The notes under the pieces were generated by a model. That model was not told the DNA's origin and did no database searches. It saw only the letters and a list, made by a program, of their open reading frames with translations. This document shows, one piece after another, positions 7,244 through 24,315 of a stretch of 64,000 nt of DNA. The stretch spans positions 584,704-648,703 of the forward strand of contig CAVRET010000002.1 in NCBI GenBank assembly GCA_963720265.1, read 5' to 3'. Made by a program: the position numbers and the translations under genes. The stretch is from an uncultured bacterium. GTDB lineage: Bacteria > Patescibacteriota > Saccharimonadia > UBA4664. Position 1 is the first letter of the stretch, and each line of letters starts with the position of its first letter.

Positions 7244-7651
7244 TGCACGTCCTTACTACTGCTACATCCGAAGAATTCGGACCGGTTGCTTGTAGTGTGT
7301 CCCCGGTAGCAGCCACGGAGAGCTCTCTGGGCACAAACCATTGCGCCGGGAGAGCTCCCCATAGCAAAAAATGTCAAAGGATGACAGTTATTGTAACATA
7401 AAATTTGTATAATTACAATTGGTAGACCAGGCGACCGAAAATTTACACCTGACTGTTAAGGAGTCCAGGCGCTGGAGACGGATAATAGGCTGCGATTCAA
7501 ACGTTTCAAAACCTAGAAGTCAGGATAAGTTGGGCCGCTTACAGACGATAAATGTCCCCATCCACAAATTTCACCACACCGTCACCAATCGCGCTAACCA
7601 TATCACCGTCTACCGCAAGCGCCGTACCATCCGGCAGACCATACACGGTAC

Positions 7652-8206: not shown

Positions 8207-8287
8207 TGCGCCATAATATCGTAAAAGAACAATATAGCAAACATAAAATTGAGGCTTCGCCGAGCCTCAGATAAAACATAAGAGCAA

Positions 8288-8362
8288 TGGTAGCCCCACG
8301 GGGAGTCGAACCCCGGTTGCCAGGATGAAAACCTGGTGTCCTAACCGCTAGACGATGGGGCC
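8288..8362 (-). tRNA. tRNA-Glu (anticodon UUC)
   Basis: Reverse complement GGCCCCATCGTCTAGCGGTTAGGACACCAGGTTTTCATCCTGGCAACCGGGGTTCGACTCCCCGTGGGGCTACCA forms a cloverleaf, has a TTC anticodon in a 7-nt loop, a GTTCGACTCC T-arm and an encoded CCA. Confidence 0.85.
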
Positions 8363-8453
8363 ATATCGAGGCATAGGGCCGTGAACCGTCAAATTCTACC
8401 ATTTTTTGCCCGTTTGCTCAATGCCATAGCATGGCTTATCGTATAAGATAAGC

Positions 8454-9029
8454 ATGAAAGATTTAGACAGCTTTTCTATCGAGTCCGACCAGATCGTGCT
8501 GCTCACCTATCGGGACGGCACCAACCGCCGGGCACTCCGGGCCGATCTGCCTCAATTACTGGCCAAAGCCGATCTCAAACGTGTCCACGCCGCCTATCGC
8601 CTGCGTCACAATTATCGCGACACGCTACCGCCCTGGCTTCGCGCTCTTGCGCTCACGGTTATCGTGCTTAGTGCCGGCCTCGGCAGCATGAAAGTGGTCA
8701 GCACGGTTATACATCCGGCCACGCACACGATACGCCATATTGCCGACACCGCCGGCACGAGCGGTGAAGTGCTCGATGCCAACGCCAATCAACCGTCAGG
8801 TGATAGTGCCACCGCCTCAAATTCCGCCCTCGCCGCACCGTCCGTCCCGCAACCGGCTGTCAATCAGCCGGCCATGCCGAATCTATCCACGCCCGCGCCA
8901 AGCCCCATCAAGCTTCCGCTCGGCGTAACTGTGCCCGCTCCCACCGCACTCGTTCCCACTGTGGTTCAAGCAGTTACCCAGCCGGTCGCACACACGGTTA
9001 CTCATGCTCTGAATTCGCTCGGGCTCTAG
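8454..9029 (+). CDS. hypothetical membrane protein with a Pro/Ala-rich C-terminus
   Basis: 191 aa, one hydrophobic helix (ALALTVIVLSAGLGS), low-complexity tail. Confidence 0.35.
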   Translation: MKDLDSFSIESDQIVLLTYRDGTNRRALRADLPQLLAKADLKRVHAAYRLRHNYRDTLPPWLRALALTVIVLSAGLGSMKVVSTVIHPATHTIRHIADTAGTSGEVLDANANQPSGDSATASNSALAAPSVPQPAVNQPAMPNLSTPAPSPIKLPLGVTVPAPTALVPTVVQAVTQPVAHTVTHALNSLGL

Positions 9030-9108
9030 ACAAACCATTAATTTCATTCTATAGTCATCATCGAGTCAACGACTCCCTATATCCGTCCGACCGAAGGAGT
9101 ACACGGGT

Positions 9109-9480
9109 ATGACTGATGCACCGTCACGTCCGGGGCAGCAGAGCCTGGACCTCGTCAACAAAACCGATCTCGAGTCGGGGTTCCAGAGCATCTTCCCATC
9201 CGATCCTCTGTCCAGGCTCTTGGTGCCGGGCGGGCTCCGTGCCGCGCTCAGCGCCGTTAGGGCGTACGCCGCTGGCGCCGAGGGGCTCACGGCAGAGCAG
9301 TGCCTGGCAGTTTGCTTGTTCGTCCAGCACAACCAAAACGCCTTGAAGAGCGGCGGCGACCGCGCCCAAGTAGCCCACGAACTGGTCGGGCTCTGCGTCG
9401 CCACCGCCCTGCAGATCCAGGGCGAGATGATCCTGAAGCTCCGCGGCCAAGCCGGCCGTGAGCCCTTCGGCCACCGCTAA
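9109..9480 (+). CDS. hypothetical protein
   Basis: 123-aa ORF; an antisense ORF overlaps it, so this is a weak call. Confidence 0.25.
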   Translation: MTDAPSRPGQQSLDLVNKTDLESGFQSIFPSDPLSRLLVPGGLRAALSAVRAYAAGAEGLTAEQCLAVCLFVQHNQNALKSGGDRAQVAHELVGLCVATALQIQGEMILKLRGQAGREPFGHR

Positions 9481-10921
9481 CGGTGCGAACCTGCTGAAGC
9501 AGGCGGGCACGTACCGCCACCGGCCGGGAGGGTGCGATCATGCACCCACCCGGCCCGGCCGCAAATTACGTTGCAATTATTCATAAACGGAAAACGGGGC
9601 CTCACCAAAAGTGGCGAGGACCCCGAAAGAAAGGGGAGATTGGCCCGAGCATAGCCCAGGTTACTCGGGCCACCCCCGCGACGCGTTACCCGTGGTTCCT
9701 AGGCACCGTCTGGATCCTGTGCACCTCGACTCATCAGAGGCTGCACATGACGGTATTGCCCGTCGGGCGATGATGCGGCCGCGTTTTCAGATTTTGCGCA
9801 CCAGTAGCCAGTACATCAGCGACCGGATCCTAGGTACCTCTTGCACCCCCCGCGTTCGGAGGCTGCCCAAATCGGGCCCCTGGAGGCATCAGGGTTTTTG
9901 GGTGTAAGGGATATTTGGTCGGCGCAGGGCACGACTCCTTCTCCCTTGCGCGCAAGGCCATCTGCAGAATTATCCTGCACAATCAGCCTCACCCAGGCAG
10001 TAATTCCCAGGTCACGAACCCGGCGAACTCTACACTCGCGCGCCAGCTCGAGACTAAGATTATCCTCGAAAGGACCCCGGCAGTATAGGTAAAGCTACCA
10101 TCATTGTCAATAAAATTCCCAACGAAAAAGGGCCTCGCTAATGCGAGAGCCCTGTCTGTTTCTCGAGCGCCTAGGAAGGCTCTCAAGAAAGTGGTGGGGA
10201 GGAGCGAGCATATCTCGGTGCTCACTCCAACCCCCGAACGTGGCGGCTTCACCCTAAGGGTCGTGTATCTCTGCCGTTTCTTGGGCGTATCCCAGGGTTT
10301 CCCCGGGTGATCATCGCCTGGCAGTTTCTTGCCCTTTTGGGTCCCGGCATGCCGCCGTACCTAGTGTCACCGGTGCTCCGGTCCGAGTTCCTCTCTACCT
10401 GGAGGCTGAAGGTTGGAAGAGCCAGCCGTCACGGCCAAGCCAACTCTCCCCGTACACACCACGGCATCTTCGGCATACAAGCCCGAAGAGTCCACAGTGT
10501 TCAAGACCGGTACCCCGAGGGGCTGGCCCGAAGGCCTCCGGAGCCGTGTGTCTAGCACCTGGCAGGCGCTGGACGTTCTCGTCGTCGTGCCCATCGGGCG
10601 TGTATGACCCCGCGAGCCTGGGTCCCGATCTTGCCGCTCCACCCTGGGAGCGACCATTCCCCGGCCTCACCGATCGCTTCAACACTTGGTGCCAAATCTA
10701 TCGCACTTCGTGCAAACGCCTCGGAAATGCCGGTACTGCCGCGCGATATAAACCATTAACAGAACTTTGTCAACTCTTTTTACAAGCTTTCCCCCAACAA
10801 CACTTTTGCTTATTCATTATCCCAATCTCTAGCTCAAGCCAAAAACCATTTGGAGTTTTGCACTTGTCAGATCGCAAATCGAGTGGATACGATAAGATTA
10901 CAATTAAAGGTGAGGTGTCCT

Positions 10922-11506
10922 ATGAGTTCTCGTGCCATAGCAATAACCCGCGCTGTCTCCGTCATTGGCGGTACGACAGCGCTGATCGTCGCTGCAACCT
11001 TTGCAGCTGTGTCATCAAATCCGGTCACGATATCGGGCATTAGCCTGGCATCAAGTGACGTCCAGGCCCTAAATGTCTACGACTTCACTGGAAATAGCTT
11101 CACAGGAGACACCAGCAACCCTGGCAACACTGGTGCCATAAATGCCGACCTGACAACCTCGACACCGGGAACGCAGTACCCGTTCTATCTGCAAAACACA
11201 AGCGGCACAAGTCTTAACATATCGGCCACAGCCAATCCAACCGCTAGTGGAAGCTTAGACCCGAGCAACGTTGAGGTGACGTTCTGGGATGACTCAACCG
11301 GGGCACCCACTCAGCTGGGACAAGGTACGCTCGCAAGCATGCAGGCCGGGACTAGCGTAGCTCTCAATGCGTTGGCCGCTGGCGCCACAGGTAGTAGCAG
11401 TAGCAATGTGGCCGGCAACTACGATGTCAGCTTCAACCTTATCGCTCCCGATTCAAGCTTCGATACGCTGAGTACTGTGCAGTTGATCTTCACGGGTACG
11501 CCGTAA
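10922..11506 (+). CDS. TasA/camelysin-like secreted protein with a SipW-cognate-type signal peptide (paralog 1)
   Basis: The ORF starts at 10850, but a strong SD (AAAGGTGAGGTG) precedes the ATG at 10922. N-terminus MSSRAIAITRAVSVIGGTTALIVAATFAAVSS is followed by a Thr/Ser/Gly-rich beta-type domain. A SipW-type peptidase gene follows immediately. Confidence 0.5.
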   Translation: MSSRAIAITRAVSVIGGTTALIVAATFAAVSSNPVTISGISLASSDVQALNVYDFTGNSFTGDTSNPGNTGAINADLTTSTPGTQYPFYLQNTSGTSLNISATANPTASGSLDPSNVEVTFWDDSTGAPTQLGQGTLASMQAGTSVALNALAAGATGSSSSNVAGNYDVSFNLIAPDSSFDTLSTVQLIFTGTP

Positions 11507-11556
11507 GTTAGAATAAAGTCCAGGCTCTAGTTCATAGTTCGTAAAGGATTCCCGGC

Positions 11557-12672
11557 ATGAAATTACTTTGGCGCATCGCTAAATTTGCTCTGGTCACTAT
11601 CTACGCTCTGTGCGGGCTCGCACTGTTGCTGTTCTTGGTGCCGGCTACCGGCTTTGAAGCCAAAGAGATCGCCACCGGCAGCATGCGCCCGGCCATTCCA
11701 CCGGGATCCTTAGTCATTATTCACAAGACTCCGCTTAATCAACTCAAGGTCGGCAACGTCGTAACGTACACTAAGTCGGTCAATCCGCCGGTAACGATTA
11801 CGCACCGGATTGTGAAAACGGAAACGAAAAGCGGCGCGCCCTACTTCATCGTTAAAGGCGACGCCAACCCGGCGCCGGATCCGGCTGTGCCCGGCGGGCT
11901 GATTGTGGGCAAGGTCATCTTCCACGCGCCGTATATTGGCCGCGTGGCGATCGATATGCGCAACCCGGTGGTGATCGTGATCATTGTGATCATTCCCGGG
12001 CTGCTGATAATCGCGGATGAAATAATCCGGCTGCGCAAGGCCTTTGGCAGACCCGCGGCGCAAAAGAGCGAACCGACCGAACCGCCCGCACCACCAGCTA
12101 CAAAGGCGAAGGAGGCGGAAGTTGCGGTTAGCGCGGTGAAGAAACCGGTGGCTGTGCCCGCCCGCCGCCGGACAATGGACGGCATGAAGCCCAGACAGCT
12201 GGTGGTTACGCTGGCGGCTTTGTCCATGGTCGCGTTTGGCGTCAAGACAACCTACGCCGAAATTGCCTCAAATGCCGTGACCATTAGTGATATTAAGCTC
12301 TCGACTGGCGGCGGTTCCGGCAGCGGCAGTGGCGGCTCGCCCAGCCCGTCACCCAGCCCCACGACGCCGGCCTGCCCTAGCGGCGACATTTTGATCCAGG
12401 ACACCGGCGCCGGCTCGATCAACATTATTGATTGTAAGAACAAAAAGACCGGCAAGGTCGTGACGATCATTATTAACAACATCGATAACTCAAATAGCCA
12501 GTCGTCGAGCTCCGGCAATGTGAACAGCAGCGGCAACACGAACAGCGGCAATACCGGCAGCGGCAACTCGAGCAACTCCAACTCAACCACAACGACCGTT
12601 AACAATAACAAGCCTTCACCGTCGGCCAGCCCGTCGCCGACGCCGAGCGCGAGTCCGACGCCTCATTCATAA
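11557..12672 (+). CDS. sipW: signal peptidase I, SipW/archaeal type (S26B), with a C-terminal TM, PS linker and Cys-motif extension
   Basis: TGSMRPAIPPGSLVII (Ser box), VVTYTKS, ITHRIV (His box) and FIVKGDANPAPD. C-terminal extension SPSPSPSPTTPACPSGDILIQDTGAGSINIIDCKNKK plus an S/N/T-rich tail. Confidence 0.7.
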   Translation: MKLLWRIAKFALVTIYALCGLALLLFLVPATGFEAKEIATGSMRPAIPPGSLVIIHKTPLNQLKVGNVVTYTKSVNPPVTITHRIVKTETKSGAPYFIVKGDANPAPDPAVPGGLIVGKVIFHAPYIGRVAIDMRNPVVIVIIVIIPGLLIIADEIIRLRKAFGRPAAQKSEPTEPPAPPATKAKEAEVAVSAVKKPVAVPARRRTMDGMKPRQLVVTLAALSMVAFGVKTTYAEIASNAVTISDIKLSTGGGSGSGSGGSPSPSPSPTTPACPSGDILIQDTGAGSINIIDCKNKKTGKVVTIIINNIDNSNSQSSSSGNVNSSGNTNSGNTGSGNSSNSNSTTTTVNNNKPSPSASPSPTPSASPTPHS

Positions 12673-12693
12673 CTATAAGTTCGATGGTCGGCC

Positions 12694-12725
12694 CGGCCGT
12701 CGCTCACGTGCAGGAGCGACGGCCG
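12694..12725. terminator. bidirectional GC hairpin (12-bp perfect stem CGGCCGTCGCTC / GAGCGACGGCCG, 8-nt loop) between convergent genes
   Basis: Perfect inverted repeat read from the sequence; lies between the sipW stop (12672) and the minus-strand gene stop (12734). Confidence 0.45.
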
Positions 12726-12733
12726 AGATCGGC

Positions 12734-13483
12734 TTACGAAAAGATGCGCAGCTCCATCGCGAGCCGCGCGAAGGCGGCTTCCGGCGGCAGTTTTTGGCTA
12801 AACCGAGTACTGCCTAGATGGTGTCCCAGAGCGCCGGCGTAGAACAGCCACGGGTGCGCTACCATCTGAGCAGCCTCGCTAGCATCGTCCCAGGCTCGTT
12901 CTCTGAGCCTGCGCCGCGTGTGGTTGAGACTCAGACCAATGGCGTAGTGCAGCAACACCGCCGCCCGTAGCAACGTGTCGTCGCCCGCCTCCAGTAGGTC
13001 TCGGGCGATCTTAAAGTGCGCGAGCGCATCCTTGAACCGCCGGAGCGAAATCATCAGGCGACCGCGGAACAACGCCACTAGGCACCTGAGCGTCGTGTCT
13101 TCGTCGCCGGCCACCTCTGCGGCCCCGACGAGGCCGTGGTGTGCGTCTTCCAGCTGGTGCATAAGGCGGAAGACATCGGCCTGTAGCACCATGATGAGCA
13201 CTAGCCACGATGCACGGCCCGGGGCATCCGGCTCCATGGCACAAGCATGCCAGCGAGCCTGCTCCAAGTGGGCAAAACTCTTCTTCCACCCCTGAGCGTC
13301 GTCCATGTCTATGACTGCCAGGCCGAGGTGGGCCAGCAGCTGTGGGACGCCGGGGTATTCGCCTGCAAGTATCTCTCTGGCAAGCGGACCGATGAAATAT
13401 TGGACGAAGCCTTCGCGCAGCTCGCGGTGAAGCTTCGCTTCCAGAATGCCGGGATCGGGGTGAGGTTCACTAGCGTCGGTCAT
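12734..13483 (-). CDS. hypothetical alpha-helical protein
   Basis: 249-aa ORF, GC-rich. Confidence 0.4.
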   Translation of the reverse strand: MTDASEPHPDPGILEAKLHRELREGFVQYFIGPLAREILAGEYPGVPQLLAHLGLAVIDMDDAQGWKKSFAHLEQARWHACAMEPDAPGRASWLVLIMVLQADVFRLMHQLEDAHHGLVGAAEVAGDEDTTLRCLVALFRGRLMISLRRFKDALAHFKIARDLLEAGDDTLLRAAVLLHYAIGLSLNHTRRRLRERAWDDASEAAQMVAHPWLFYAGALGHHLGSTRFSQKLPPEAAFARLAMELRIFS

Positions 13484-13737
13484 GTCAAGCTCCCCTTTCT
13501 GGGGCTTTTGCGTACCATAAACGCTCGAGCCATCATTCTAGCTGTCAGGCTCGGGCAGCGCAATTGCTGATCGCGCAAGCTGCGCACGACGAAAGTCCGC
13601 GGGACTACTGGCGGACCAAGCCGCTGTGGCTGCGATGCCTCATGGTGACGGCCGTAGTGCTACTCGTGCTGCTGCACCGTTAATGAAGCCCCTTGCAGGT
13701 CGCGAGGGGCTTCATTACGCCTAATTGATGGGCTGCA

Positions 13738-14607
13738 TCAGTCCTCAACGTCTTCCTCCTCATTGATGTCATCATCTTCGGGCGCTATGACCTTCTCCCA
13801 AATCTTTCCCGTCATTTCATGTGCCTTGAGTCTCTCGGCCGTCGTAAACCACATTGCGATGTCCTCGCCCCACTTATCTTCAAGCAGTCGTTTGGTAGCT
13901 CGCTTGCAGTAGATCAAATCGGTGAGGGTTGGGCAGATGAACAGGGCGATTGGGTTTGGCTCCTCCTCTCCCGTCTCATCTTGCCAATATCCGTCTTCCA
14001 GGTACTCAATGTAGTTCTTGAGCCGCTTCCTCACTCTTTGGCGGGGCATGGTGGCTTCGATGATTTCGATGAAGCGCGTGGTGTCCGTGAAGTCGTCGTC
14101 GGTCTCAACCGTCCTTTCGAACACCAGCTGCGGGCGGATCAAGTCAGACTCACTCAGGAAATGATAATCGCTCTCTAGGTCGAAGTAGTCGGCTTGGGTG
14201 GTGTATAGATAGTGAACGCGGCTGGTGGTGGCATTTGCTAAGTTACTGTTGTGCATGGTGATGCAACAGTCGGCTACAAGCACACACTGCTCAACGAAGC
14301 CCGGGCTGCGGGACGACTCCCGGTAGCGCTTGCGAAACTCCTCGATCGGGTGACCCTGATTCTCCTTGAGCCATCGGATGCCGTTTAAGCCGAGATAGTA
14401 GATCGCTGGCTTAGATTTTTCTAGAAAGTTAGTTGAGTAAATCCATTCGACGTAATGGTTAGCTCGAAGGTCCGCGAGCCACGCATTAATCCGCTTGTAA
14501 TCTTTATGACCCATAAGCGTTTGTATTTGGATACGATTTAAGAATCTGTATTTGTACAGCAGTTTGAGTATAGTTTGTTGTCTTGGAGTTAGTTGCGGCA
14601 GTTTCAT
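13738..14607 (-). CDS. replication-relaxation family protein (plasmid/ICE-type)
   Basis: N-terminus LTPRQQTILKLLYKYRFLNRIQIQTLM matches the replication-relaxation (PF13814-like) wHTH signature; acidic C-terminus; local GC clearly lower than the flanks. Confidence 0.55.
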   Translation of the reverse strand: MKLPQLTPRQQTILKLLYKYRFLNRIQIQTLMGHKDYKRINAWLADLRANHYVEWIYSTNFLEKSKPAIYYLGLNGIRWLKENQGHPIEEFRKRYRESSRSPGFVEQCVLVADCCITMHNSNLANATTSRVHYLYTTQADYFDLESDYHFLSESDLIRPQLVFERTVETDDDFTDTTRFIEIIEATMPRQRVRKRLKNYIEYLEDGYWQDETGEEEPNPIALFICPTLTDLIYCKRATKRLLEDKWGEDIAMWFTTAERLKAHEMTGKIWEKVIAPEDDDINEEEDVED

Positions 14608-14976
14608 TTGATGAGATAGTTAGTGGATATTATAGGTAGCGATTAGTTCTGACGTTTTTTTGTTTGTCTTGTTTTGAGTGATGATATTTTGCCAACCCCA
14701 CCTACCCGTTATTTATATGGTAGGTGCCACGCTTATTCAAATATTACTGCGTATAAAACCCTCTTTATTGTCCTAACCCACTAGGACAAAGGTTACAAAA
14801 AGAAAATGCCCTTATATCGGCGCAGGGGCAACCGCATTGCAGGGCGTTAAGCCTTATTGATGAGCGATTTGTATCAGGCCGTACGGACGGCGGGCTCCCT
14901 GCTCATTTACAGATGCTGTAATTTATGTAAAAGTATTGCGGTATCGAACAAGTTGACAGTGAGAAGGTGATGCAAC
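14608..14976. promoter_or_regulatory. AT-rich divergent intergenic region between the replication-relaxation gene (-) and a membrane protein gene (+)
   Basis: AT-rich tracts (ttttttgtttgtcttgttttgag; tatttatatggtagg). Confidence 0.3.
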
Positions 14977-16095
14977 GTGGCCGCAGATCAGCGGTTTACG
15001 CTAGTGCTTCCGCCAGCGACCCAAGAGCCGGACCTCGCAACCGAGATCGGGGATACCGTCGGCTACATTCCGACGCGCGTGGCTGATTGGTACAAGGCCA
15101 AGACCGAACGAGACGTTAGCGCCCGGCTCCGGCAGCGGACGACGCAGTGTTTCCGCCTCCGGGGCTTCGGGATAGCGTTGACTCCGCTCGGCTTGGTCCT
15201 GATTGTGGATCATTGGCGCGCGCTGGGCATCGTGCTGTACGTCGTGGGCGTCGCAGTCTGGGCGGCTACCATGGAAAAATGCGACGCCATGCACGCGCAG
15301 CTGGACCGGCTGTGTTTGACCGCCACCTGGCACACGGAACGGTTGCTCGGCGATCTTAAAGGCGACCACAACCTGTCCAGGTACGCGATTGGTCTAGCCC
15401 ATCTCGTCCGGCAGCAGCTGGGTCCAACCGCCTGGCTGTACGTCGAGCGGCTTGTAGCCCATGACGGCGACGCTACGAATGATACCGTGGCGCTCTATGT
15501 CCTGCGCAGCGGTCAGCAGTGCTATCTACAGTTCTGGGCCGGCGATGAGCCGGTGTACCTGCCGCGCTGCGGGGCCGACCAGGTAGCGCGGCGCACCGCC
15601 CTTGGACAGGCCTTGCTGGTCGGTGGTGTCCAGGTACGCGAATCCGCTCCGTTGCAGGCGTTCCAGGAGCGGATCAAAGAACTCGCAAGCCGCCAGCAGT
15701 TCGTGGAGCTCATGATCGCCCTCCTCGGCCTCACCGCCGGGTTGGCATGCATCGGAGTGGCCACCCTGCAGCTTTACCTCAAGGCGGCAACCCGGGCGGA
15801 GGCCATAGAGGCGTTGGCCATTCCGGCGCTTATCGGCCTCATCATCGTCGCGATATATTATATCCGCTACCGACGGGGGCCGCGCTGGCGCACGGTGTCC
15901 ATGCCGCCGAACAACACCGTTCCGACCGACCAACTGGAGGTACTGGAAAAAGTCCAGGCCGCCCTGCCACCGGACGCCACCTTGGCCACGGAAGTACTCA
16001 GGGTGCCGCTCATCGGTACGGTGATCTGCTGCCAGGTTGAACGCGACGATGTCGTGGTCGGCGTGGCATCCTGGATCAACAAACGAACGCTGTGA
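14977..16095 (+). CDS. hypothetical membrane protein (2+2 TM helices)
   Basis: 372-aa ORF; hydrophobic segments LGLVLIVDHWRALGIVLYVVGVAVWAA and LGLTAGLACIGVATL...ALIGLIIVAIYYI. Confidence 0.4.
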   Translation: MAADQRFTLVLPPATQEPDLATEIGDTVGYIPTRVADWYKAKTERDVSARLRQRTTQCFRLRGFGIALTPLGLVLIVDHWRALGIVLYVVGVAVWAATMEKCDAMHAQLDRLCLTATWHTERLLGDLKGDHNLSRYAIGLAHLVRQQLGPTAWLYVERLVAHDGDATNDTVALYVLRSGQQCYLQFWAGDEPVYLPRCGADQVARRTALGQALLVGGVQVRESAPLQAFQERIKELASRQQFVELMIALLGLTAGLACIGVATLQLYLKAATRAEAIEALAIPALIGLIIVAIYYIRYRRGPRWRTVSMPPNNTVPTDQLEVLEKVQAALPPDATLATEVLRVPLIGTVICCQVERDDVVVGVASWINKRTL

Positions 16096-16123
16096 CAGCG
16101 CCAAGTCCGCTGACCGCAACCGC

Positions 16124-16163
16124 AAGGAGTCAACCGTCCGCGGTCGCGGTCGGCGGACTCCTT
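16124..16163 (+). terminator. inverted repeat AAGGAGTC...GACTCCTT followed by a T-rich stretch, between convergent genes
   Basis: 8-bp perfect arms separated by a GC-rich 24 nt, then ttgtttat. Confidence 0.35.
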
Positions 16164-16188
16164 GTTTATGGCCCAGGTCCCACTCGTC

Positions 16189-18711
16189 TTATGGGAACTG
16201 GCTAAGCAGCAATGCCGAAGTGCTCGTGGCGGCACCGCTGGGAGTTACCTCCATATCAACCCAGTACGTTTGTCCAAGTCCTTTAACATAAATATCCGGA
16301 TAAGCGTTGGGCGGGCCAACGGCAAATACCGCTTGTCCCTGCGTTGATCCACCTTGGTCAAAATTCGCCGGAGCTCCGGACCCGGTATATGGTGAAGTCG
16401 AGCTGGCTGCATAGATACCGGGCACGTGCATCACACCGTTGCGGATGCCGTCGAACGTCGGGCCGGCATTTTGGATGGCGCTTCCCGGGAACTGGTAGGC
16501 CGCGCCGATGTTGAAGTAGTAGAGTTGCTTGGCCGACCAGGCATCGGGAACGGCCGCGCTGTTGTAGACCGACACCCGGTAACGTCCGGCCGGCAGGGTT
16601 ACGCCTGTTAGTGCGCACGATACCCACCCCGAGCCGGCGATACCGCTCCAAGTCGGGCTGGTGTTACTGGCTACTATCGCCTGAGTGTCCTCGTCCCACA
16701 CGTCGCAGCGTGTGGCTAGCTGGGCGGTCCCGGACGGGCTGTAATACCAGATATTATTTACAGCACAGCTTTGGTTGAGCCGCATCTCCGTGCCAACGAC
16801 GTAGTCGACTGCCGAATCCCCGGTGGTGAATTGGTCGCCGTAAAACTTGTTTGGCCACGCGCGGTAGCTGCCGGTATAACCGTTTGGTGTGGTGGTGGTA
16901 ACCTGGATATCGATCCAGAAATTGGCAGAGTTGGATACACCCAAGGGGCACGTCGCAGACGGGTCAGTGCCGCCGACGGTAAATAGTCCTTGGCCGATAT
17001 TGCCACCGCCGTTGTATTGCGATGATCCGTATGACGAGTTGCCATCGGCAAAGGCCAGGATCGGGCCATTTTGGATGCCGTTAGGATGACCGCCTGCACC
17101 AAACGAGTCAACCGCGCCGGTCCCCGCACCGGACGTGTCTGAATCCGGAAAAGCGCCGTTAATGCCGGTCGCGGCAATGTAACGAGTAATTTCCGACAGC
17201 AAAATCGGCATTGGCAGCGCAACGTAATTCCACCCGGTCGACAGCGCGCCCGAGGTCACAACCGAGCCGGGCACCAGTGTTGTATCAGTAAAGTTAAGGG
17301 GGTTGATTTGCCAGAGGGCGAATTTCTGCGGCGCAGTCAAGCCGCCGGTCGGGCAGACCCAGTGCCAATAGCCCTCAAACCAACAATTGCCCTGGAGCGT
17401 CATAAAACCAACACCGGAGATAAAGTTGCCCGAGTACGACACAGGTGTCGTCGGCCCGTTCCCGGGCCGCCCGTCTTGGCCGTCCATGAAGCGGTAATTC
17501 GCCGCCGGCTCCGGCACCACCTCGACGTCGATCCAGTACAGCGCGTAGGTAAGGGTGGCATTGTCCGGATAGGCCCAGGTATTGGAGTTGTATGACATCT
17601 GCCCCGGGGAAGCTGCGCCATAGCCGGGTATGGTCAGAATGTCTTGCGTGAAACCGGAGCCATACATCTGTCCGGTGTTAAACATATTGTCCGAATACGC
17701 CCACCAGATTGAACCGCCGGCATTAAACGTGGCAACTTTATAATCACCGGCCGCGAGCGTGATAGCGGCGCTCCGGTAATCGCACTTAATCCACCCATTG
17801 CCGGCCGTTGCCGCACTACCGTCCACGTTCACCCAGGTTGGTGAGCTGTTGTCCGTCCCGGCTACAACCGTCTGACTGCCAACGTCCCAGACCGCACACC
17901 GCGTCGGCAGCACGGTCGCCCCCGACGGCGAGTAGTGCCAGATGGACGCCAGCTGGGCTGACTGGCTCAGCGAAAATTCCATCCCAAGTGTAAAGCCGCC
18001 GCTGCTGGTGTCCGTCTGAATCGGAGTCGGCACCGTCGGCCAGGCCCGCTCCGGCGTGCCCGGCGGAACCGCATCTGTCACCTGCACATCGAGCCATAAA
18101 AGGTCGTCTGCATCGTTATTATCGGGTTGGTGCACCGAAGCATCGGCGCCGTTGGTATTAAACGGCTGTTGGGGCCAAAACGTGCTCGCGCTGCTGCCGC
18201 TGGGGTAGGCCATAAGCGGCCCATTAGTGATGCCGTTGACGTATGGATCGCCCGACCCGAACTGATTTTTCGTGTCAGGAAAACCAATCGTGGTGCTGTA
18301 GCCTATCGCAGCCACGTATGGAACATTTGGGGTAAGCGGTATGGGGTTACAGGGAACAAAATTCCACGCCCCGGCTGTGAACGCGCCAGTCCACAGCACC
18401 TCAGACGCCGGAATAACGGTAGCGTCGGGGTAATCGTAAGCCTGCCACAAGGCAAAACCAATGTTCGTGTTGGTGTCGCCGCCGGTTGGCACCCACCACC
18501 AGTAGCCGTTGAAATAGAGACCGCCAGCAGTCACATTAAAAACCAGCCCGGCTACATAATTGCCGCTGTACGCCGTTGGTGAACCCGGCGGCTGGGTGCC
18601 TGAGGATCCAACCCCCGGGCGGCCGCTTTGGCCGTCCATTAAGCGGTATGTACTCACGATCTGTACTTCATACTGCAAACAATTATAGTGAGACCAGGCT
18701 ACTAACCACAA
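16189..18711 (-). CDS. large repeat protein with four DUF4082-like domains arranged (A-B)x2; no N-terminal signal peptide in the longest frame
   Basis: 840 aa. Repeats begin YRLMDGQSGRPG / YRFMDGQDGRPG (A) and GMEFSLSQ...IWHYSPSG...RCAVWD / GTEMRLNQ...IWYYSPSG...RCDVWD (B). Each ends in LLWLDVQV / LYWIDVEV / NFWIDIQV / TYWVDMEV, like the NYWVDVVF ending of DUF4082. The ORF-track start is a non-ATG (TTG) codon; the first ATG is at 18639. Confidence 0.55.
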   Translation of the reverse strand: MWLVAWSHYNCLQYEVQIVSTYRLMDGQSGRPGVGSSGTQPPGSPTAYSGNYVAGLVFNVTAGGLYFNGYWWWVPTGGDTNTNIGFALWQAYDYPDATVIPASEVLWTGAFTAGAWNFVPCNPIPLTPNVPYVAAIGYSTTIGFPDTKNQFGSGDPYVNGITNGPLMAYPSGSSASTFWPQQPFNTNGADASVHQPDNNDADDLLWLDVQVTDAVPPGTPERAWPTVPTPIQTDTSSGGFTLGMEFSLSQSAQLASIWHYSPSGATVLPTRCAVWDVGSQTVVAGTDNSSPTWVNVDGSAATAGNGWIKCDYRSAAITLAAGDYKVATFNAGGSIWWAYSDNMFNTGQMYGSGFTQDILTIPGYGAASPGQMSYNSNTWAYPDNATLTYALYWIDVEVVPEPAANYRFMDGQDGRPGNGPTTPVSYSGNFISGVGFMTLQGNCWFEGYWHWVCPTGGLTAPQKFALWQINPLNFTDTTLVPGSVVTSGALSTGWNYVALPMPILLSEITRYIAATGINGAFPDSDTSGAGTGAVDSFGAGGHPNGIQNGPILAFADGNSSYGSSQYNGGGNIGQGLFTVGGTDPSATCPLGVSNSANFWIDIQVTTTTPNGYTGSYRAWPNKFYGDQFTTGDSAVDYVVGTEMRLNQSCAVNNIWYYSPSGTAQLATRCDVWDEDTQAIVASNTSPTWSGIAGSGWVSCALTGVTLPAGRYRVSVYNSAAVPDAWSAKQLYYFNIGAAYQFPGSAIQNAGPTFDGIRNGVMHVPGIYAASSTSPYTGSGAPANFDQGGSTQGQAVFAVGPPNAYPDIYVKGLGQTYWVDMEVTPSGAATSTSALLLSQFP

Positions 18712-18844
18712 CCATCATCCGAATTGGCGGTCCGCACAACGTACGAAACCATAAGAATTAACAATAAAATGGGGTTATAGTATAAGTATTATTGTAAGAA
18801 CATACATACCAGGTATGCTCTCAGAAAAACTATGATGCAATCTG

Positions 18845-18865
18845 CTAGATAGAAAATCTAGATAG
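18845..18865. promoter_or_regulatory. direct repeat CTAGATAG x2 (13-bp spacing) in the AT-rich leader upstream of the second TasA-like gene
   Basis: ctagatagaaaatctagatag read from the sequence, about 30 nt upstream of SD AGAGGTGAGG. Confidence 0.3.
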
Positions 18866-18895
18866 CAATTAACTAAATAGAGGTGAGGCATAGCT

Positions 18896-19471
18896 ATGAC
18901 TAGACGCTCATTTGCAATCGCCCGGGCCGCTGCCACGATCGGCGGTATGGGTGCGTTAATAATTGGAGCGACGATGGCCGCTACCAATGTCGGCACCGTG
19001 GCGCTAACGGCCAATTCGTTCGCGACCACGTCCACCGGCTTACAGATTTCCAACGATGGCAGCACATTTAGTGACACCGCCACCGGGTTTGACTTTGGCA
19101 GTCTTACGACGGGTGGTACATCAACTAAAGAAAACATGTGGCTTCAGGACACCTCAGGTGGCACGACACCACTCGGCATTACGCTCGCTGCGGCCAATGT
19201 CGGCGCGCTCACCGGCCTGAATCCCGCCGACGTCATGGTAAACGTCGAAGCCCACGGCGGCTCCACGGTTGATAGCTTCTCGCTCTCGTCTCTGGAATCA
19301 AGCACACCGGCGCTCAGCGCGGCCAACGAGCCGACCATTGAAAGCGACGGCACGCCGGTCCCGACCGAGTACGACGTTTGGCTGTCACTCAGCTCCGGCG
19401 CCGTTACCGGCACCACGGATCCTACGAGCAACACGTTTGACCTCAACTTCACCGGAACGAGTAGTTCGTAA
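18896..19471 (+). CDS. TasA/camelysin-like secreted protein with a SipW-cognate-type signal peptide (paralog 2)
   Basis: MTRRSFAIARAAATIGGMGALIIGATMAATNVGTVALTANSFATTSTG resembles the SipW-cognate signal class. Thr/Ser/Gly-rich body; followed 3 nt later by the SipW paralog. Confidence 0.5.
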   Translation: MTRRSFAIARAAATIGGMGALIIGATMAATNVGTVALTANSFATTSTGLQISNDGSTFSDTATGFDFGSLTTGGTSTKENMWLQDTSGGTTPLGITLAAANVGALTGLNPADVMVNVEAHGGSTVDSFSLSSLESSTPALSAANEPTIESDGTPVPTEYDVWLSLSSGAVTGTTDPTSNTFDLNFTGTSSS

Positions 19472-19473
19472 CC

Positions 19474-20496
19474 ATGAGGGCGCCTACGCAAGCTTTCCGC
19501 TGGATTGGCCTGGCCGCATACGCGGGCCTCGCCACGCTCATCATCCTCTTTCTCACGCCCATTGGTGGTTGGAAGGCCCTTGATGTGCTCACGGGAAGCA
19601 TGCGTCCGGCAATTCAGCCGGGCGCCCTTGTCATCATTCATCGTGTACCACTCAGTTCGGTTCATCCCGGCAATGTGGTCACCTATGTTAATCCGCACGA
19701 TACCAAAGAGCTGATCACCCACCGGGTGCAGTCAGTCAATAAGGTCAACGGCGTCACCATGGTGACGGTCAAGGGCGATGCCAATACCATCGCCGACCCG
19801 CCGTTTGCCGGGGGCCAAATTCAGGGCCGGGTGGCAACGATTGTGCCCTATGCCGGTCGTGTGCTCAATGTTATCCACAATCCCTATGGTCTGGCGCTGC
19901 TCGTCATTTTGCCGGCCCTATTTGTAATATGGATCGAAGCTAGGAGGTTGATGGGCGTGCTGGTTGAAGAATCCGACCCCGCGACGCCCGGCTCAGGCCG
20001 CTCCGGCGGTCTGCCGGTAGCAATCCGCTTTCGCCGCCCCCGGGAGATTAAGCAAACAGACGCAGGCCGACCACTCGACGGTATGCGCCGGCTCGCGGTG
20101 TTGCCGGTCGTGGCCATCGCCTTGGCCGTATTCGCGGTTGGAGTAACACTGGCCGCGCTCACCAGCACGGTCTCGCTCACCGGCAACAGCTTCCAAACCC
20201 AAGTCAGCGGCTCGCCCAGCCCCACGCCTTCTCCTAGTGGCAGTCCAACTCCATCGCCCTCGGGTTCGCCCACGCCGTCCGGCTCACCGTCGCCGACTGC
20301 TTCACCTTGCCCCACCAATGTCTCAATTACTGACACCGGTGCCGGCTCTACTAACATCGTGCGCTGCACCTCCAAGACCATCATTACCAACTCAAATTCA
20401 AACAACGTAAGCGTTACGAATTCAAATCATCAGTCCACCTCGGGTGGCGGTTCCAGTACCAACACTCAGACCACCAACATTAACGTCACCTATTAG
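19474..20496 (+). CDS. sipW: signal peptidase I, SipW type (paralog 2) with a TM, PS-linker and Cys-motif C-terminal extension
   Basis: TGSMRPAIQPGALVII, VVTYVNP, ITHRVQ, VTVKGDANTIADP; extension SPSPTPSPSGSPTPS...PCPTNVSITDTGAGSTNIVRCTSK. Confidence 0.7.
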   Translation: MRAPTQAFRWIGLAAYAGLATLIILFLTPIGGWKALDVLTGSMRPAIQPGALVIIHRVPLSSVHPGNVVTYVNPHDTKELITHRVQSVNKVNGVTMVTVKGDANTIADPPFAGGQIQGRVATIVPYAGRVLNVIHNPYGLALLVILPALFVIWIEARRLMGVLVEESDPATPGSGRSGGLPVAIRFRRPREIKQTDAGRPLDGMRRLAVLPVVAIALAVFAVGVTLAALTSTVSLTGNSFQTQVSGSPSPTPSPSGSPTPSPSGSPTPSGSPSPTASPCPTNVSITDTGAGSTNIVRCTSKTIITNSNSNNVSVTNSNHQSTSGGGSSTNTQTTNINVTY

Positions 20497-20543
20497 GGCT
20501 TCGCGTGAGGCGGCCTTGGGCGACGATTTGTAAAACGTCTTCG

Positions 20544-21371
20544 TTATTTCAATAAGCTCGAAGGGGATGGATTATAGCCGAAAAGTTCTAAGTTCAACTC
20601 AATTACCTCCGGAGTAACAAGACTAGCGTACAAGTTTGCGGCGTCTCTATTGCGGGCGAATAGATGCCATCTGTCAGTAACATCCATGTCTTGAGCACGA
20701 CCCTGTAGAGTGAGACCATCGAATGAACTACCCTCACCAATGCCAGAGACCTGGTTGATGCCTAGGTCTTCGTTTAAGAATCCCAGCTGAATTGCAACCC
20801 TATCTCTGTATTCCTTATTCTGAAACCATTTATCGTAGAGAATAGCAGCGAAATCACCTTCAGACATATTAACGATAGCATGCGCGTTTTCTACCCAAAC
20901 ATCACGCACATCCATCAGGCCAAGGCGATGAATGTTACGCGTCTCGCCTCTAGCCTCGACATTACGGCGTCTCTGTATTTGTGAAGCAATGAGGTTGGGG
21001 AAATTTCTTAATAACAACACGTCAATGCAATTGCTTCGTGTAAAAGTCGTATAATGCTCCTGTAGCCTTCGTTTGGCGAACATCAGGTCTTCATAGCTTA
21101 CGACTACATATCTGGGTCTGCCACGATCAATTGCTGACAGCATGTAGTCTACGTCAAGATACGGTTTTGAGGGATCGGCTGGATGACGCGGTTCATTTAC
21201 GGCATTAAAATGCGCAACCCCACCTTTCTGGCCACGGCTTAGTCCTTCACTAAGCCATCCTATCAAGGCATGATTGCCTGAACGTTTAAGTCCGAAAAAA
21301 TGAATGTACGTCACACTTTGTGACTGACCAGCAATGATAGCTTCTGTACGTAACGAATCTACTTCTGGCAT
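20544..21371 (-). CDS. hypothetical protein, possibly a sulfotransferase-like P-loop fold
   Basis: FFGLKRSGNHALIGWL resembles the 5'-PSB PKSGTT motif of sulfotransferases; lower GC than the surroundings. Confidence 0.3.
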   Translation of the reverse strand: MPEVDSLRTEAIIAGQSQSVTYIHFFGLKRSGNHALIGWLSEGLSRGQKGGVAHFNAVNEPRHPADPSKPYLDVDYMLSAIDRGRPRYVVVSYEDLMFAKRRLQEHYTTFTRSNCIDVLLLRNFPNLIASQIQRRRNVEARGETRNIHRLGLMDVRDVWVENAHAIVNMSEGDFAAILYDKWFQNKEYRDRVAIQLGFLNEDLGINQVSGIGEGSSFDGLTLQGRAQDMDVTDRWHLFARNRDAANLYASLVTPEVIELNLELFGYNPSPSSLLK

Positions 21372-21754
21372 CAGAAGTGCATTATGAGACAGCTACGCAC
21401 CTAACACAACTAACCGTTGGGACCACCGCGAATATAGGGGGCTAACGCCTATCAAACTGCACTATAGATCTAAAGTTTAACTACTTGATCTATAGTCTGG
21501 AGCTTGTAGCAAGAACATAGTTTCTAGCCACGCCGTACATGACCAGCTAGAGCTAGTCAATATAGCTAGAACCGGCCTAGCCGTGACCACAAGGTTCTAG
21601 ACCGTCATGCTCAGCCAAGAACCTACGTGCTCATTTGTCAACGCTCTTCTCGGAATTGGCTGCATGGCGTCAAGATGTACCTGTTTCGGTCTATGCACGA
21701 GTGAAGACTCAATCGTGCTACGCGCTTATGCTTAAATAGGGTACAGTTAAGCCA
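21372..21754. promoter_or_regulatory. long AT-rich divergent intergenic region
   Basis: 383 nt without a convincing ORF between the minus-strand gene start and the GH16 gene. Confidence 0.25.
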
Positions 21755-22894
21755 ATGCCAAAAACTCGAAATAAAAATCTGCCAGGACGCAATGGTCTCG
21801 GCCGTTATTTGCTGGGCGCTGTGGTGATATTAGCTTCCATTGTCATCGGTCTAGTGGTGGTACACGTGAAAGCGGCCGGGCTGGTTGGGGATCTCAATGA
21901 TGACGGTGTGGTCAATGTGCTTGACTTGTCGATTCTGCTAAGCGACTGGGGGCAAACAAACGCCGCCATTGAGCAAAACCTCGGACAAACCGGGCCCGTT
22001 GGCGTCATTGACCTGTCGATCTTGTTGTCTCACTGGGGGGATACTGCCTCGACACCCACACCTTCGCCCAGCCCGTCCCCAGTCGCGGCAGGTTGTGTCA
22101 GCGGCGGCGTGGTTGCACCGTGCATCGGCGGAGCTTCTACGGGCGCCAGCGGTTGGGGGACACCCATATTTGATGACGAGTTTAATGGGACTAGCCTGAA
22201 TACCAGCAACTGGAGTACAGGGTGGTTTGGTAGCGGAATCACCGGTCCAGTCAATAGCCTTGAAGATGATTGTTATAACCCGGACCTCGTAAGTATTTCC
22301 GGGGGTTATCTTGATGAGCAGATTATTCAACAAACCTGCACTGGGCGGCTTGGATCGGAACCATACTCTGCAGGCTACATAACTTCAATGACCTCGGGTG
22401 GAGGTAGTGACTTGTTCGGCTTCACTTACGGCTTCATAGAAGCCCGTATTTACTTCCCGGCAGCGTCCAACGGTGAAGTTGCCAACTGGCCGGCTTTCTG
22501 GCTACAAAGTCTGCATGACGGCAGCCAAACTGCGCCGAATACGGAAATAGATATCGAGGAAGGCCTGCATGGAGCGCTAAGGTGGCATGTGCTTGGGGCC
22601 GGAGGAACTACGGTTTGTACTGATGGCGACACTGGACCAGGATGGCACACTATCGGCCTTGATTGGCAGCCTGGTTCGGCGACTTTCTACTATGACGGTG
22701 TAGCAGTTGGGAGTACTTGCACAAGTAGTGCGCTTGATCCTGCTAATACTGGAGAAATGAGAATAGCTTTGGGCGAACAGACTAGCGCCACCATTGCAGG
22801 GCCGCAGACCGCACCACAAACAATGCAGACCGATTACGTTCGGGTTTGGCCTACAACTGGTACAGTTTATACATACGATGGCAGCTCAAATTAA
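21755..22894 (+). CDS. secreted glycoside hydrolase family 16 (laminarinase/beta-glucanase-like) with an N-terminal dockerin-like repeat pair
   Basis: N-terminal TM/signal, then DLNDDGVVNVLDLSILLSDWGQT and GPVGVIDLSILLSHWGDT (dockerin type I-like). PSPSPSP linker; GH16 catalytic motif EIDIEE, and FWLQS. Confidence 0.6.
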   Translation: MPKTRNKNLPGRNGLGRYLLGAVVILASIVIGLVVVHVKAAGLVGDLNDDGVVNVLDLSILLSDWGQTNAAIEQNLGQTGPVGVIDLSILLSHWGDTASTPTPSPSPSPVAAGCVSGGVVAPCIGGASTGASGWGTPIFDDEFNGTSLNTSNWSTGWFGSGITGPVNSLEDDCYNPDLVSISGGYLDEQIIQQTCTGRLGSEPYSAGYITSMTSGGGSDLFGFTYGFIEARIYFPAASNGEVANWPAFWLQSLHDGSQTAPNTEIDIEEGLHGALRWHVLGAGGTTVCTDGDTGPGWHTIGLDWQPGSATFYYDGVAVGSTCTSSALDPANTGEMRIALGEQTSATIAGPQTAPQTMQTDYVRVWPTTGTVYTYDGSSN

Positions 22895-23007
22895 ATTCAT
22901 ACATAACTAATTAACGGCCACACCCCATTATCGCAAGTATACGATCCTGAGTCGGGCAGGCATCGTGTGTTTTTGCCAAAGCCACGCGCACAGGCCATAA
23001 TGAGCTT

Positions 23008-23847
23008 GTGTTTATCGCAGGCATTCTGTTCAGCTCCACACTATTTGAAGAAATCTCCGAAACCATTGGCAAGAAATCGGTTCGCAAGCGCCGCGAAACC
23101 GTCTATAATTTGGCCTTCTTGAGCCTATTTTGGACACTGACGCTGCTAATTGTGGCAGGCCTCATTGGCGTCAAGTTCGTTGTACAGGAAGCCTCATGGC
23201 CGTTTCTGATCGTGCGCATGATAATCGGAATCGCGCTCAATTTTGTGGCCGCCCAAGCCGTGGTCCAGGCCGATCGCAGCACACTCGGGTTCATCCGTCT
23301 GCTCACAATTCCGCTCGTGCTCGCAACCGACATCATGCTCGGCTACCACCTCACGACGCTCCAAATCGTAGCCGTCTGTGTTATGTTTGTCGGCCTTGTC
23401 GCTGCCTTTCATCATAACCCCACCGGCAAACGCGGTGCCGGCTGGGCCTTGCTGGTGGCAATTCTTGCAGCCGCCGACGCCACACTCTACAAGCACGATA
23501 TTACTCACTACAATTCCGTGGTTGGAGAGCAAGTTGTGGTCTATAGCGCCGTTGTCTTGTTCTTCTATGTCTGCTCGGTCCGGCAGGGCAGCCGGCCGCT
23601 CCATCTGTTGGCACGACCAATTACGGGTATTCAGTCGTTTACCGACGGATGCGGCCTGGCGATTGAAAGCTTCGCCTTCAGCTTCGCCCCGGCGTCGGTG
23701 GTTGTAGCTGCCAAGCGTACCTTCGCCCTCATGTGGTCAATCGTGTTTGGGCATCGCTACTTTCACGAGCACAAATTACATCGCAAACTATTCGCCGGCG
23801 CCGTACTGGCCGTCGGCCTCATTCTGCTCGTCAGCCCCGGCATCTGA
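23008..23847 (+). CDS. EamA/DMT-like membrane protein
   Basis: 279 aa, about 8-10 TM helices; start is a GTG and the N-terminus may be longer. Confidence 0.4.
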   Translation: MFIAGILFSSTLFEEISETIGKKSVRKRRETVYNLAFLSLFWTLTLLIVAGLIGVKFVVQEASWPFLIVRMIIGIALNFVAAQAVVQADRSTLGFIRLLTIPLVLATDIMLGYHLTTLQIVAVCVMFVGLVAAFHHNPTGKRGAGWALLVAILAAADATLYKHDITHYNSVVGEQVVVYSAVVLFFYVCSVRQGSRPLHLLARPITGIQSFTDGCGLAIESFAFSFAPASVVVAAKRTFALMWSIVFGHRYFHEHKLHRKLFAGAVLAVGLILLVSPGI

Positions 23848-23892
23848 TTCGCATATGATATAATATGGATCGAAAGACCAAGGAGGGTAACA

Positions 23893-24315
23893 TTGGTCAA
23901 ACCAGCTCGTCATGAATCATATACTTTGCTCGTCGCAGTCAGCGCCGGGCTCGTGCTGGTATTAATCGCCGACTGGTCATGGAGCCAGGGTCACAGCCTC
24001 AGCGCCAAGCCGGCCGACACCACGGTCACGGTTTCAACGTCACCAAGCCCGTCACCGTCCAGCTCTCCCATGTCTACGCCCACGCCGGCCTCATCGCCGA
24101 CCCCTCAGAGCTCATCGCAAAGCTCCACCACCACGAGCTCGTCCGGCAACAGCTCAAACAACATCACCGTTACCAACACCAACGACCAGACCGCAACCTC
24201 AGGTGCGGCCAACAATCATAATTCCAGCTCGACTAGCGTCACTATCAACGGTAATAACACTACTACCACAACCACTGACAACAACGGCCACGTTACCACC
24301 ACGGTCACGCATTAG
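23893..24315 (+). CDS. membrane-anchored S/T/N-rich low-complexity protein
   Basis: One N-terminal TM, SPSPSPSSSP linker, and an NNITVTNTN...TSVTINGNNTTTTTT tail like the SipW C-terminal tails. Confidence 0.4.
   Translation: MVKPARHESYTLLVAVSAGLVLVLIADWSWSQGHSLSAKPADTTVTVSTSPSPSPSSSPMSTPTPASSPTPQSSSQSSTTTSSSGNSSNNITVTNTNDQTATSGAANNHNSSSTSVTINGNNTTTTTTDNNGHVTTTVTH

Follow-up and report, generated by a model that had tools for sequence, protein, structure and literature searches.

Paralogous pairs of a TasA-superfamily subunit and an S26B signal peptidase with a fused subunit-like strand: a putative surface-fibre system in a Saccharimonadia bacterium

We analysed a stretch of 64,000 nucleotides (the window; GC content about 58%) from an uncultured bacterium of the Saccharimonadia (Patescibacteriota, UBA4664), which covers positions 584,704 to 648,703 of contig CAVRET010000002.1 (1,108,292 bp; assembly GCA_963720265.1). 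It harbors two cassettes, each composed of a small gene (A1 or A2) and a peptidase gene (S1 or S2) behind it. That a cassette encodes a small secreted subunit together with its dedicated signal peptidase of the S26B type is, in our opinion, very probable. We further propose, with a probability of about 0.6, that the cassettes constitute a two-gene, TasA-like donor-strand surface-fibre system, fibre formation included. In the aligned sequences, the C-terminal part of the peptidase carries a copy of the N-terminal strand of the subunit, and the copy matches the subunit of its own cassette. Related loci obtained from metagenome and genome scans are denoted by L-numbers; coordinates refer to the window unless a locus is named.

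The first cassette lies on the forward strand and comprises A1 (10922-11506, 194 aa) and S1 (11557-12672, 371 aa), separated by 50 nt. The second, likewise on the forward strand, comprises A2 (18896-19471, 191 aa) and S2 (19474-20496, 340 aa) with only 2 nt between them. The same Shine-Dalgarno (SD) octamer, AGGTGAGG, is placed 6-7 nt 5' of both small-gene ATGs (10908..10915 and 18881-18888, forward strand); it occurs four times in the window, where 1.6 occurrences are expected. Reading frames, gaps and shared SD had all been given correctly in a first-pass annotation of this DNA. The same annotation regarded the cassettes as divergent paralogs, which holds, and estimated their identity at 40-50%, which is too high: A1 and A2 share 39% identity in a 124-aa alignment (E 1e-10), and the value for S1 and S2 is 35% (E 2e-45). 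Judged by these alignments, the cassettes are old paralogs that descend from an anciently duplicated pair.

S1 and S2 are classified by sequence models and predicted fold as S26B (endoplasmic reticulum/archaeal-type, Ser/His) signal peptidases and not as LepB-type enzymes. This assignment rests on three grounds. Firstly, they reach 87.6 and 87.8 bits with TIGR02228 (sigpep_I_arch; cut-off 51.85), against 28 and 23 bits with the bacterial LepB-type model TIGR02227 (cut-off 47). Secondly, Ser42 (in TGSMRP), His83 (ITHR), Asp102 (GDAN) and Asp108 are invariant in 34 homologs, and the catalytic motifs of S1 align with SGSMEP, IVHR and GDNN of SEC11A/C. Thirdly, the AlphaFold2 (AF2) model of S1, with a predicted local distance difference test score (pLDDT) above 85 over the catalytic domain, is closest to SEC11. 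A Foldseek search places SEC11C/A first (7p2q, E 2.5e-7; 7p2p, E 2.3e-6) and Streptococcus pyogenes SipA next, while SpsB and LepB follow at 4.7e-3 and 9e-3. Sequence matches of the peptidase in the PDB are likewise confined to human SEC11C/SEC11A. The earlier placement of both enzymes with S26B/SipW and outside the LepB clade is thus confirmed. The scores with the Bacillus SipW equivalog NF046067 (61.4 and 64.7 bits) stay below its cut-off of 190 bits; at the level of sequence scores, S1 and S2 belong to the same subfamily as Bacillus SipW and are not its orthologs. In nearly all related loci with enough flanking sequence, a small gene is situated directly upstream of the peptidase, and the adjacency of subunit and peptidase is seen in L001, L018, L020, L026 and L028-L035. 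When genome contigs were scanned with the peptidase alignment, the S26B genes returned, from Halolamina and from actinobacteria, were all distant.

The small proteins belong to a family. A word-indexed search yielded six relatives, while a full HMMER profile scan recovered 175 cluster representatives. Of these, 76 reached E<=1e-10, and almost all are 180-215 aa long and aligned end to end; a scan of genome contigs with the small-protein alignment found no relatives. The N-terminus follows the consensus M..R.LAIARAVxVIGAxAALVxGVTFAAL.S...TL..NT.S., in which T26 and A28 (a T-x-A motif) are nearly invariant. In A1 the motif reads T26-F27-A28, with cleavage predicted before A29 and a conserved strand at residues 29-48; in A2 it reads T26-M27-A28 and is followed by ATNVGTVALTANSFATT. 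Conservation is highest in the h-region of the signal (2.96 bits per column), lower in the 20 residues past T-x-A (2.34) and lowest in the body (1.6-1.95). As far as the family alignment goes, such conservation of a signal region is not typical of ordinary signal peptides.

The AF2 model of A1 (pLDDT 83.8, predicted template modeling score 0.72) shows a beta-sandwich from residue 50 on, and residues 29-45 are left outside the monomer fold, unstructured. When this fold was compared with 48,164 chains, the top five matches were all subunits of donor-strand filaments. The predicted fold of the small proteins is thus a jelly roll matching TasA, AbpA or CanA, and we place the subunits in the TasA superfamily because of the AF2 model and these fold matches. 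Together with the conserved T-x-A, this agrees with the earlier suggestion of a specialised signal in front of a TasA-like jelly roll. Sequence models give traces of the same relationship. Among 150 family members, weak matches were obtained by TIGR04088 (26 members), Peptidase_M73 (PF12389; 9), TasA (NF046066; 3), BsaA (2) and TIGR04089 (2); the best E-values are 3.4e-4 for TIGR04088, a short model whose scores are intrinsically low, and 2.1e-5 for PF12389. A1 and A2 are remote relatives of the M73/TIGR04088 families, and the name "TasA-like" is supported, on the modelled structure, at the level of superfamily and fold; the scores do not support membership in Pfam M73 or TIGR04088. A search with the family profile against a database of 3,483 sequences gave Bacillus subtilis TasA at E 0.017 in a sensible register, which we treat as a lead only. 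An hhalign comparison of the family with TasA, reported at "99%", was discarded as an artefact, since shuffled TasA also scored "99%".

The subunit profile also matched reading frames that adjoin S26B genes in more distant taxa, weakly in L012 (Agromyces), L017 and L036 (E 1e-4 to 1e-2) and more strongly in L007 (5e-8 to 6e-12). These matches suggest that the pairing of such genes is much wider than current annotation shows.

The most peculiar part of the system is the C-terminus of the peptidases. Of the 34 peptidases, 33 (S1, S2 and 31 of 32 further homologs) extend beyond the catalytic domain and the membrane helix at its C-terminal side. The first part of the extension comprises a linker rich in basic residues and proline, the conserved motif (R)xLDGM, a third helix, a T-x-A motif and a segment resembling the start of the mature subunit. 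Behind it follow a Pro/Ser linker, in many cases a Cys...Cys segment, and a stretch of the type "VTVTNxNxQxxxSG..." that is rich in N/S/T/G. In S1, residues 1-211 (11557..12189) contain the N-terminal membrane helix, the S26B catalytic domain, a second membrane helix and a basic/Pro-rich linker predicted to be cytoplasmic. Residues 212-252 (12190..12312) contain the third helix and T232-Y233-A234, followed by EIASNAVTISDIKLST, a copy of the strand that follows the presumed cleavage site of A1. In the tail proper (12313..12672), the linker is of the Gly/Ser and Pro/Ser type, the Cys...Cys segment reads CPSG..DTGAGSINIIDC, and the N/S/T/G-rich stretch has the form "NxNxQxxxSG". S2 is built in the same manner, with a third helix at about residues 207-225, T225-L226-A227 and then ALTSTVSLTGNSFQT, its copy of the A2 strand (nt 20086-20202), behind which come a Pro/Ser linker, a Cys...Cys segment and an NxNxQ tail; all of these parts are encoded on the forward strand. 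A hidden Markov model (HMM) of the first 48 residues of the subunits matches S2 at 213-243 (E 3e-7), S1 at 216-251 (E 1e-3) and several other peptidases, and none of the approximately 510 other reading-frame fragments of the window. An HMM made from the tail motif mainly reflects biased composition. We searched the literature and found no description of such a C-terminal extension for SipW.

The copied strand follows its partner from cassette to cassette. A1 has SNPVTISGISLAS where the S1 tail has SNAVTISDIKLST; A2 has TVALTANSFAT where the S2 tail has TVSLTGNSFQT; and in L030 the subunit has TTTNQVAASGTVAV and the tail TTTNSVESRGIVTV. When segments anchored by hand were compared in seven independent cassettes, cognate pairs shared 53 positions, while the 1854 possible derangements averaged 35.8 and went no higher than 44, so that 0 of 1854 reached 53. 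At shared residues the codons mostly differ (3 of 8 and 2 of 8 are identical), and serine is encoded by TCG in one gene and by AGT/AGC in the other. The match is therefore held at the protein level and does not stem from recent gene conversion. No Shine-Dalgarno sequence precedes internal Met codons of S1 and S2, and separate translation of the tails is thus unsupported.

Beyond the NxNxQ stretch, some peptidases (P0167, P0169, P0171, P0175 and P0178) carry a lamin-tail domain (PF00932). In L020 (GCA_038230095.1, 6164-9428) three tandem subunit genes precede a single peptidase of this lamin-tail type.

The following model of cassette function is proposed. The S26B peptidase would remove the signal of the subunit after T26-x-A28. 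The N-terminal strand freed in this way would then enter the next subunit (donor-strand complementation), and repetition of this step would give a fibre without assistance of a chaperone. The third helix of the peptidase, its second T-x-A, the strand copy and the Cys-containing tail would together act as a fused initiator or anchor at the outer face of the membrane. Self-cleavage might release this module together with its tail; alternatively, the module might stay tethered at the fibre base. In either case it could donate its strand to the first subunit, and thereby prime the fibre or hold it at the site of processing. The parts of this model deserve different degrees of belief. Polymerisation is pointed to indirectly, by the position of residues 29-45 outside the monomer fold and by their higher conservation compared to the body. 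The role of the peptidase tail as a TapA-like initiator or anchor is tentative, and we favor it less than fibre formation as such. Rather doubtful is the most far-reaching version, in which the peptidase also serves as the platform for fibre assembly, uniting SipW and a TapA-like initiator in one polypeptide. It would mean that a complete chaperone-free fibre machine can be encoded by two genes, which a genome of about 1.1 Mb here keeps twice, each copy with its own matched specificity, a consequence that we hold to be equally doubtful.

Several observations weigh against the fibre model. A1 and A2 themselves match none of the Pfam and NCBIfam models at E<=0.1, including TasA (NF046066), Peptidase_M73 (PF12389) and TIGR04088; the last two are the models against which the first-pass annotation proposed to check them. 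A profile search of PDB sequences with the subunit family found only de novo immunoglobulin designs and not TasA. The cognate-match test covers seven cassettes, with manual anchoring as described. The tail segments are without a match among known families, the AF2 model of full-length S1 leaves the tail disordered and does not inform about docking, and the third helix of S1 is only moderately hydrophobic. Finally, one of the peptidases of L018 (234 aa) adjoins a subunit gene in spite of having no tail, and the tail is therefore not indispensable.

In an alternative reading, the small proteins are monomeric beta-sandwiches of the secreted or wall-bound kind (an adhesin, a binding protein or a camelysin-like enzyme) that form no fibre and simply require a dedicated S26B peptidase, and the tail is an inert additional membrane anchor with a low-complexity spacer. 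We consider this rather unlikely. Among 48,164 chains, the top five in the fold comparison are all donor-strand filament subunits, and the N-terminal segment lying outside the fold is more conserved than the body. Moreover, an inert anchor would not be expected to follow its partner strand in each cassette, with different codons.

Less probable still, in our view, is that the fused segment serves as a tethered pseudo-substrate, which regulates or specifies processing of the cognate protein and has no role in a fibre. The segment does reproduce the h-region, T-x-A and flanking residues that the peptidase could recognise, and cognate co-variation fits recognition by an enzyme as well as it fits binding of a subunit. 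Signal peptidases, however, usually read their substrates by the -3/-1 rule and not far past the cleavage site. The match here runs 12-16 residues past it (SN.VTIS.I.L and TV.LT.NSF.T), beyond the usual reach of a peptidase and over the stretch that is the candidate donor strand, and a pseudo-substrate would leave the conserved extracellular tail without a role. We keep the donor-strand fibre as the preferred explanation.

The genes between and behind the cassettes are best understood through a close relative. A metagenome scan with the peptidases led to L026, whose pyruvate kinase is 86% identical to that of the window; L026-L035 stem from soil and peat samples. Its gene order is a homolog of window 8454-9029, then A1, S1, A2, S2, the gene of a 140-aa protein and pyruvate kinase, all directly adjacent. 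Orthologs are 45% (A1), 69% (S1), 81% (A2), 67% (S2) and 54-60% (140-aa protein) identical, and the spacer between S1 and A2 of L026 aligns with the conserved region upstream of A2 in the window (18728..18895, forward strand), inside which the SD of A2 is located. Because the cassettes of L026 are tandem and gapless, two blocks of the window are insertions relative to it. The first (12673..18727) contains a 249-aa open reading frame (ORF) and a Replic_Relax gene on the reverse strand, a 372-aa membrane ORF on the forward strand, and a giant DUF4082-like gene on the reverse strand. The second (20497..23892), with a lower GC content of 0.45-0.55, contains a 275-aa ORF (reverse strand) and genes for a GH16-domain protein and an EamA-like membrane protein (both forward strand). 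The comparison of these loci shows the genes between and after the cassettes, Replic_Relax, DUF4082-like, GH16 and others, as later insertions and not as parts of the system. In the more distant L001 (pyruvate kinase 75% identical), only cassette 1 is present, followed by the 140-aa gene and pyruvate kinase, and the giant is absent.

The first-pass annotation assumed, by contrast, that the two cassettes bracket the DUF4082 protein and adjacent genes as one SipW-dependent surface or adhesion module. Physical adjacency in the window and homologs of the giant with DUF4082 near glycosyltransferase genes speak for it, and yet it is very improbable, as L026 has the cassettes in tandem with a spacer alignable to 18728-18895, a 62% identical ortholog of the giant is surrounded by unrelated genes, and the 8-10 kb around it contain no cassette, the giant lacks a signal peptide, L001 has cassette 1 and not the giant, and L022 contradicts it as well. 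The comparison of genomic context has thus overturned the bracketing, and the giant and Replic_Relax gene drop out of the proposed module.

The giant itself (reverse strand) is encoded by an ORF at 16189-18711 (840 aa), in a database call shortened to 16189-18639 (P0196, 816 aa, start MDGQ). No signal peptide of any kind was seen in it. It was originally described as a protein of four DUF4082 repeats, which we have to correct: the protein is an internal duplication with two halves 35% identical to each other (E 9e-53). The whole protein has no Pfam match at E<=0.1, and one of its four segments approaches DUF4082 (PF13313) at E 0.04 and 14.3 bits, below the cut-off of 28.4. Among the homologs listed, about one in two has a precomputed PF13313 match, and the match of the ortholog is flagged "faint". 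In terms of sequence, the giant is therefore a remote DUF4082 relative at best, with a label that comes from homologs alone. Its homologs are found close to glycosyltransferase genes, and this, together with their DUF4082 matches, suggests some envelope-related role.

The Replic_Relax gene (13738-14607, reverse strand) was correctly recognised from the beginning, as it reaches 51.4 bits with PF13814 (cut-off 25.3, E 1.9e-13) and 2.5e-7 with replication-initiation families of PHROG. It is the only match in a PHROGs scan of the island genes, and a tblastn search found no relatives in plasmid and phage collections. Its presumed low GC content proved to be limited to 14400-14799 (0.38), that is, to its 5´ end and the upstream region, and no att-like direct repeats were found around the inserted blocks. 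Just 3´ of the gene, at 13681-13717, a near-perfect inverted repeat of 16 nt with a 5-nt loop is probably a terminator.

A candidate for a third component is the 140-aa protein (23893..24315, forward strand), in which a single membrane helix and a Pro/Ser linker are combined with a "NNITVTNTNDQTATSG" stretch similar to the tails of the peptidases. Its orthologs (L026 8037-8516, L001 13746-14168) are always found between the cassettes and pyruvate kinase. We regard it as such a candidate because, in both L026 and L001, its gene is the next one behind the cassettes; as a weak lead from sequence we mention that it may provide further anchoring. BLASTP aligns it with the S2 tail at E 0.02, the tail-motif HMM does not reach it, and it matches no known family.

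The proposed system can be compared with several known ones. Donor-strand assembly has been shown for TasA, AbpA, threads and cannulae (PMC9674648, PMC9245690, PMC9715654, 10.1101/2024.12.30.630787). In B. subtilis, TapA primes TasA through strand complementation with its N-terminus, and a construct that secretes nothing but residues 44-57 of TapA is enough for a biofilm to form; the genes tapA and sipW overlap, which was seen as hinting at physical association (PMC10151520). For AbpB a comparable initiator role was proposed, and the AbpA study found no dedicated peptidase gene adjoining that operon (PMC9245690).

The B. subtilis tapA-sipW-tasA operon is similar to our cassettes in four aspects. 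A dedicated S26B Ser/His peptidase gene adjoins the substrate gene, the subunit is a jelly roll with a conserved N-terminal strand, and the signal ends in T-x-A, with the reservation that the corresponding end of the TasA signal, GTWA|AF, aligns weakly. In addition, a second polypeptide offers a matching strand, which is TapA in Bacillus (PMC10151520) and the peptidase tail here. The differences are substantial. Sequence identity with TasA is negligible, and the mature subunit has about 165 aa compared to 234 aa of TasA; the order is subunit followed by peptidase, and the whole pair is duplicated; a separate tapA gene is absent, the TapA-like strand being fused to the C-terminus of the peptidase behind the third helix. 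Archaeal donor-strand filaments, namely Pyrodictium cannulae (CanA/CanX, 9h8b), DUF1102 tubes (9bac), Pyrobaculum AbpA bundling pili (7ueg) and Sulfolobus threads (7pnb), share 6-13% sequence identity and have no peptidase-fused strand.

SipW-cognate families of Firmicutes and Actinobacteria (TIGR04088, TIGR04089, TIGR04090/BsaA; sipW-calY1-calY2 of B. cereus) also consist of small paralogous exported proteins with a conserved signal, clustered with an S26B peptidase, and may have several subunit genes per locus, similarly to L020 with its three. In contrast to them, A1 and A2 remain below detection by these models, and the peptidases described here carry a C-terminal extension of 130-300 aa. 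Another parallel is the SipA/LepA-type homolog of S. pyogenes (4n31), a signal-peptidase fold dedicated to assembly of a surface fibre, which ranks third among the fold matches of S1. SipA lacks catalytic activity and works with sortase-linked pili, whereas S1 and S2 retain Ser/His/Asp and have no sortase in their vicinity. The clustering of SipW-type peptidases with TasA-like proteins is already known from Firmicutes and Actinobacteria through NCBIfam models, and in B. cereus the subunits are duplicated. What appears to be new is a subunit family too divergent for annotation, the duplication of subunit and peptidase as a unit, and an S26B clade with a fused, co-varying copy of the substrate strand and a tail.

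Donor-strand fibres of the TasA superfamily assemble without chaperone or usher. To our knowledge, the sole proposals for how their first subunit is primed and how they are attached to the cell concern TapA of Bacillus and archaeal AbpB. If our assumptions are true, a priming strand fused to a dedicated peptidase offers a simple two-gene model of both initiation and specificity, and two paralogous pairs provide a built-in control of that specificity. A surface-fibre system would then have been missed by Pfam and NCBIfam annotation in an uncultivated lineage of soil and peat. Annotation of the DUF4082-like and Replic_Relax proteins as parts of it is unwarranted.

Some further observations concern related loci and the remainder of the window. 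L018 (ENA contig_50194, 1.12 Mb) contains two subunit-plus-peptidase cassettes, at 7373-8705 and 14125-15765, about 5.4 kb apart. Upstream of A1, about 1.9 kb between a 191-aa gene and A1 (9030-10900) bear overlapping ORFs on both strands and no convincing gene, with GC content up to 0.67 and no Pfam or Rfam matches; the corresponding spacer of L026 is only about 1 kb long. An Rfam scan of the window gave tRNA-Glu as its sole match. The GH16-domain protein of the second insertion (21755-22894, forward strand), located in a low-GC block absent from L026, is secreted and has dockerin-like DxNxDGxVNxxDL repeats near its N-terminus. A MarP-family serine protease is encoded at 39445-40626. Alanine-tRNA ligase (55325-57214, forward strand) is of a short form (629 aa, PRK01584 type), which fits a reduced genome. 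A UvrD/PcrA-type helicase of 1111 aa (32795-36130, forward strand) is interrupted by an intein, with Intein_splicing and Hint matches lying between the N-terminal helicase domain (14-261) and UvrD_C (648-985).

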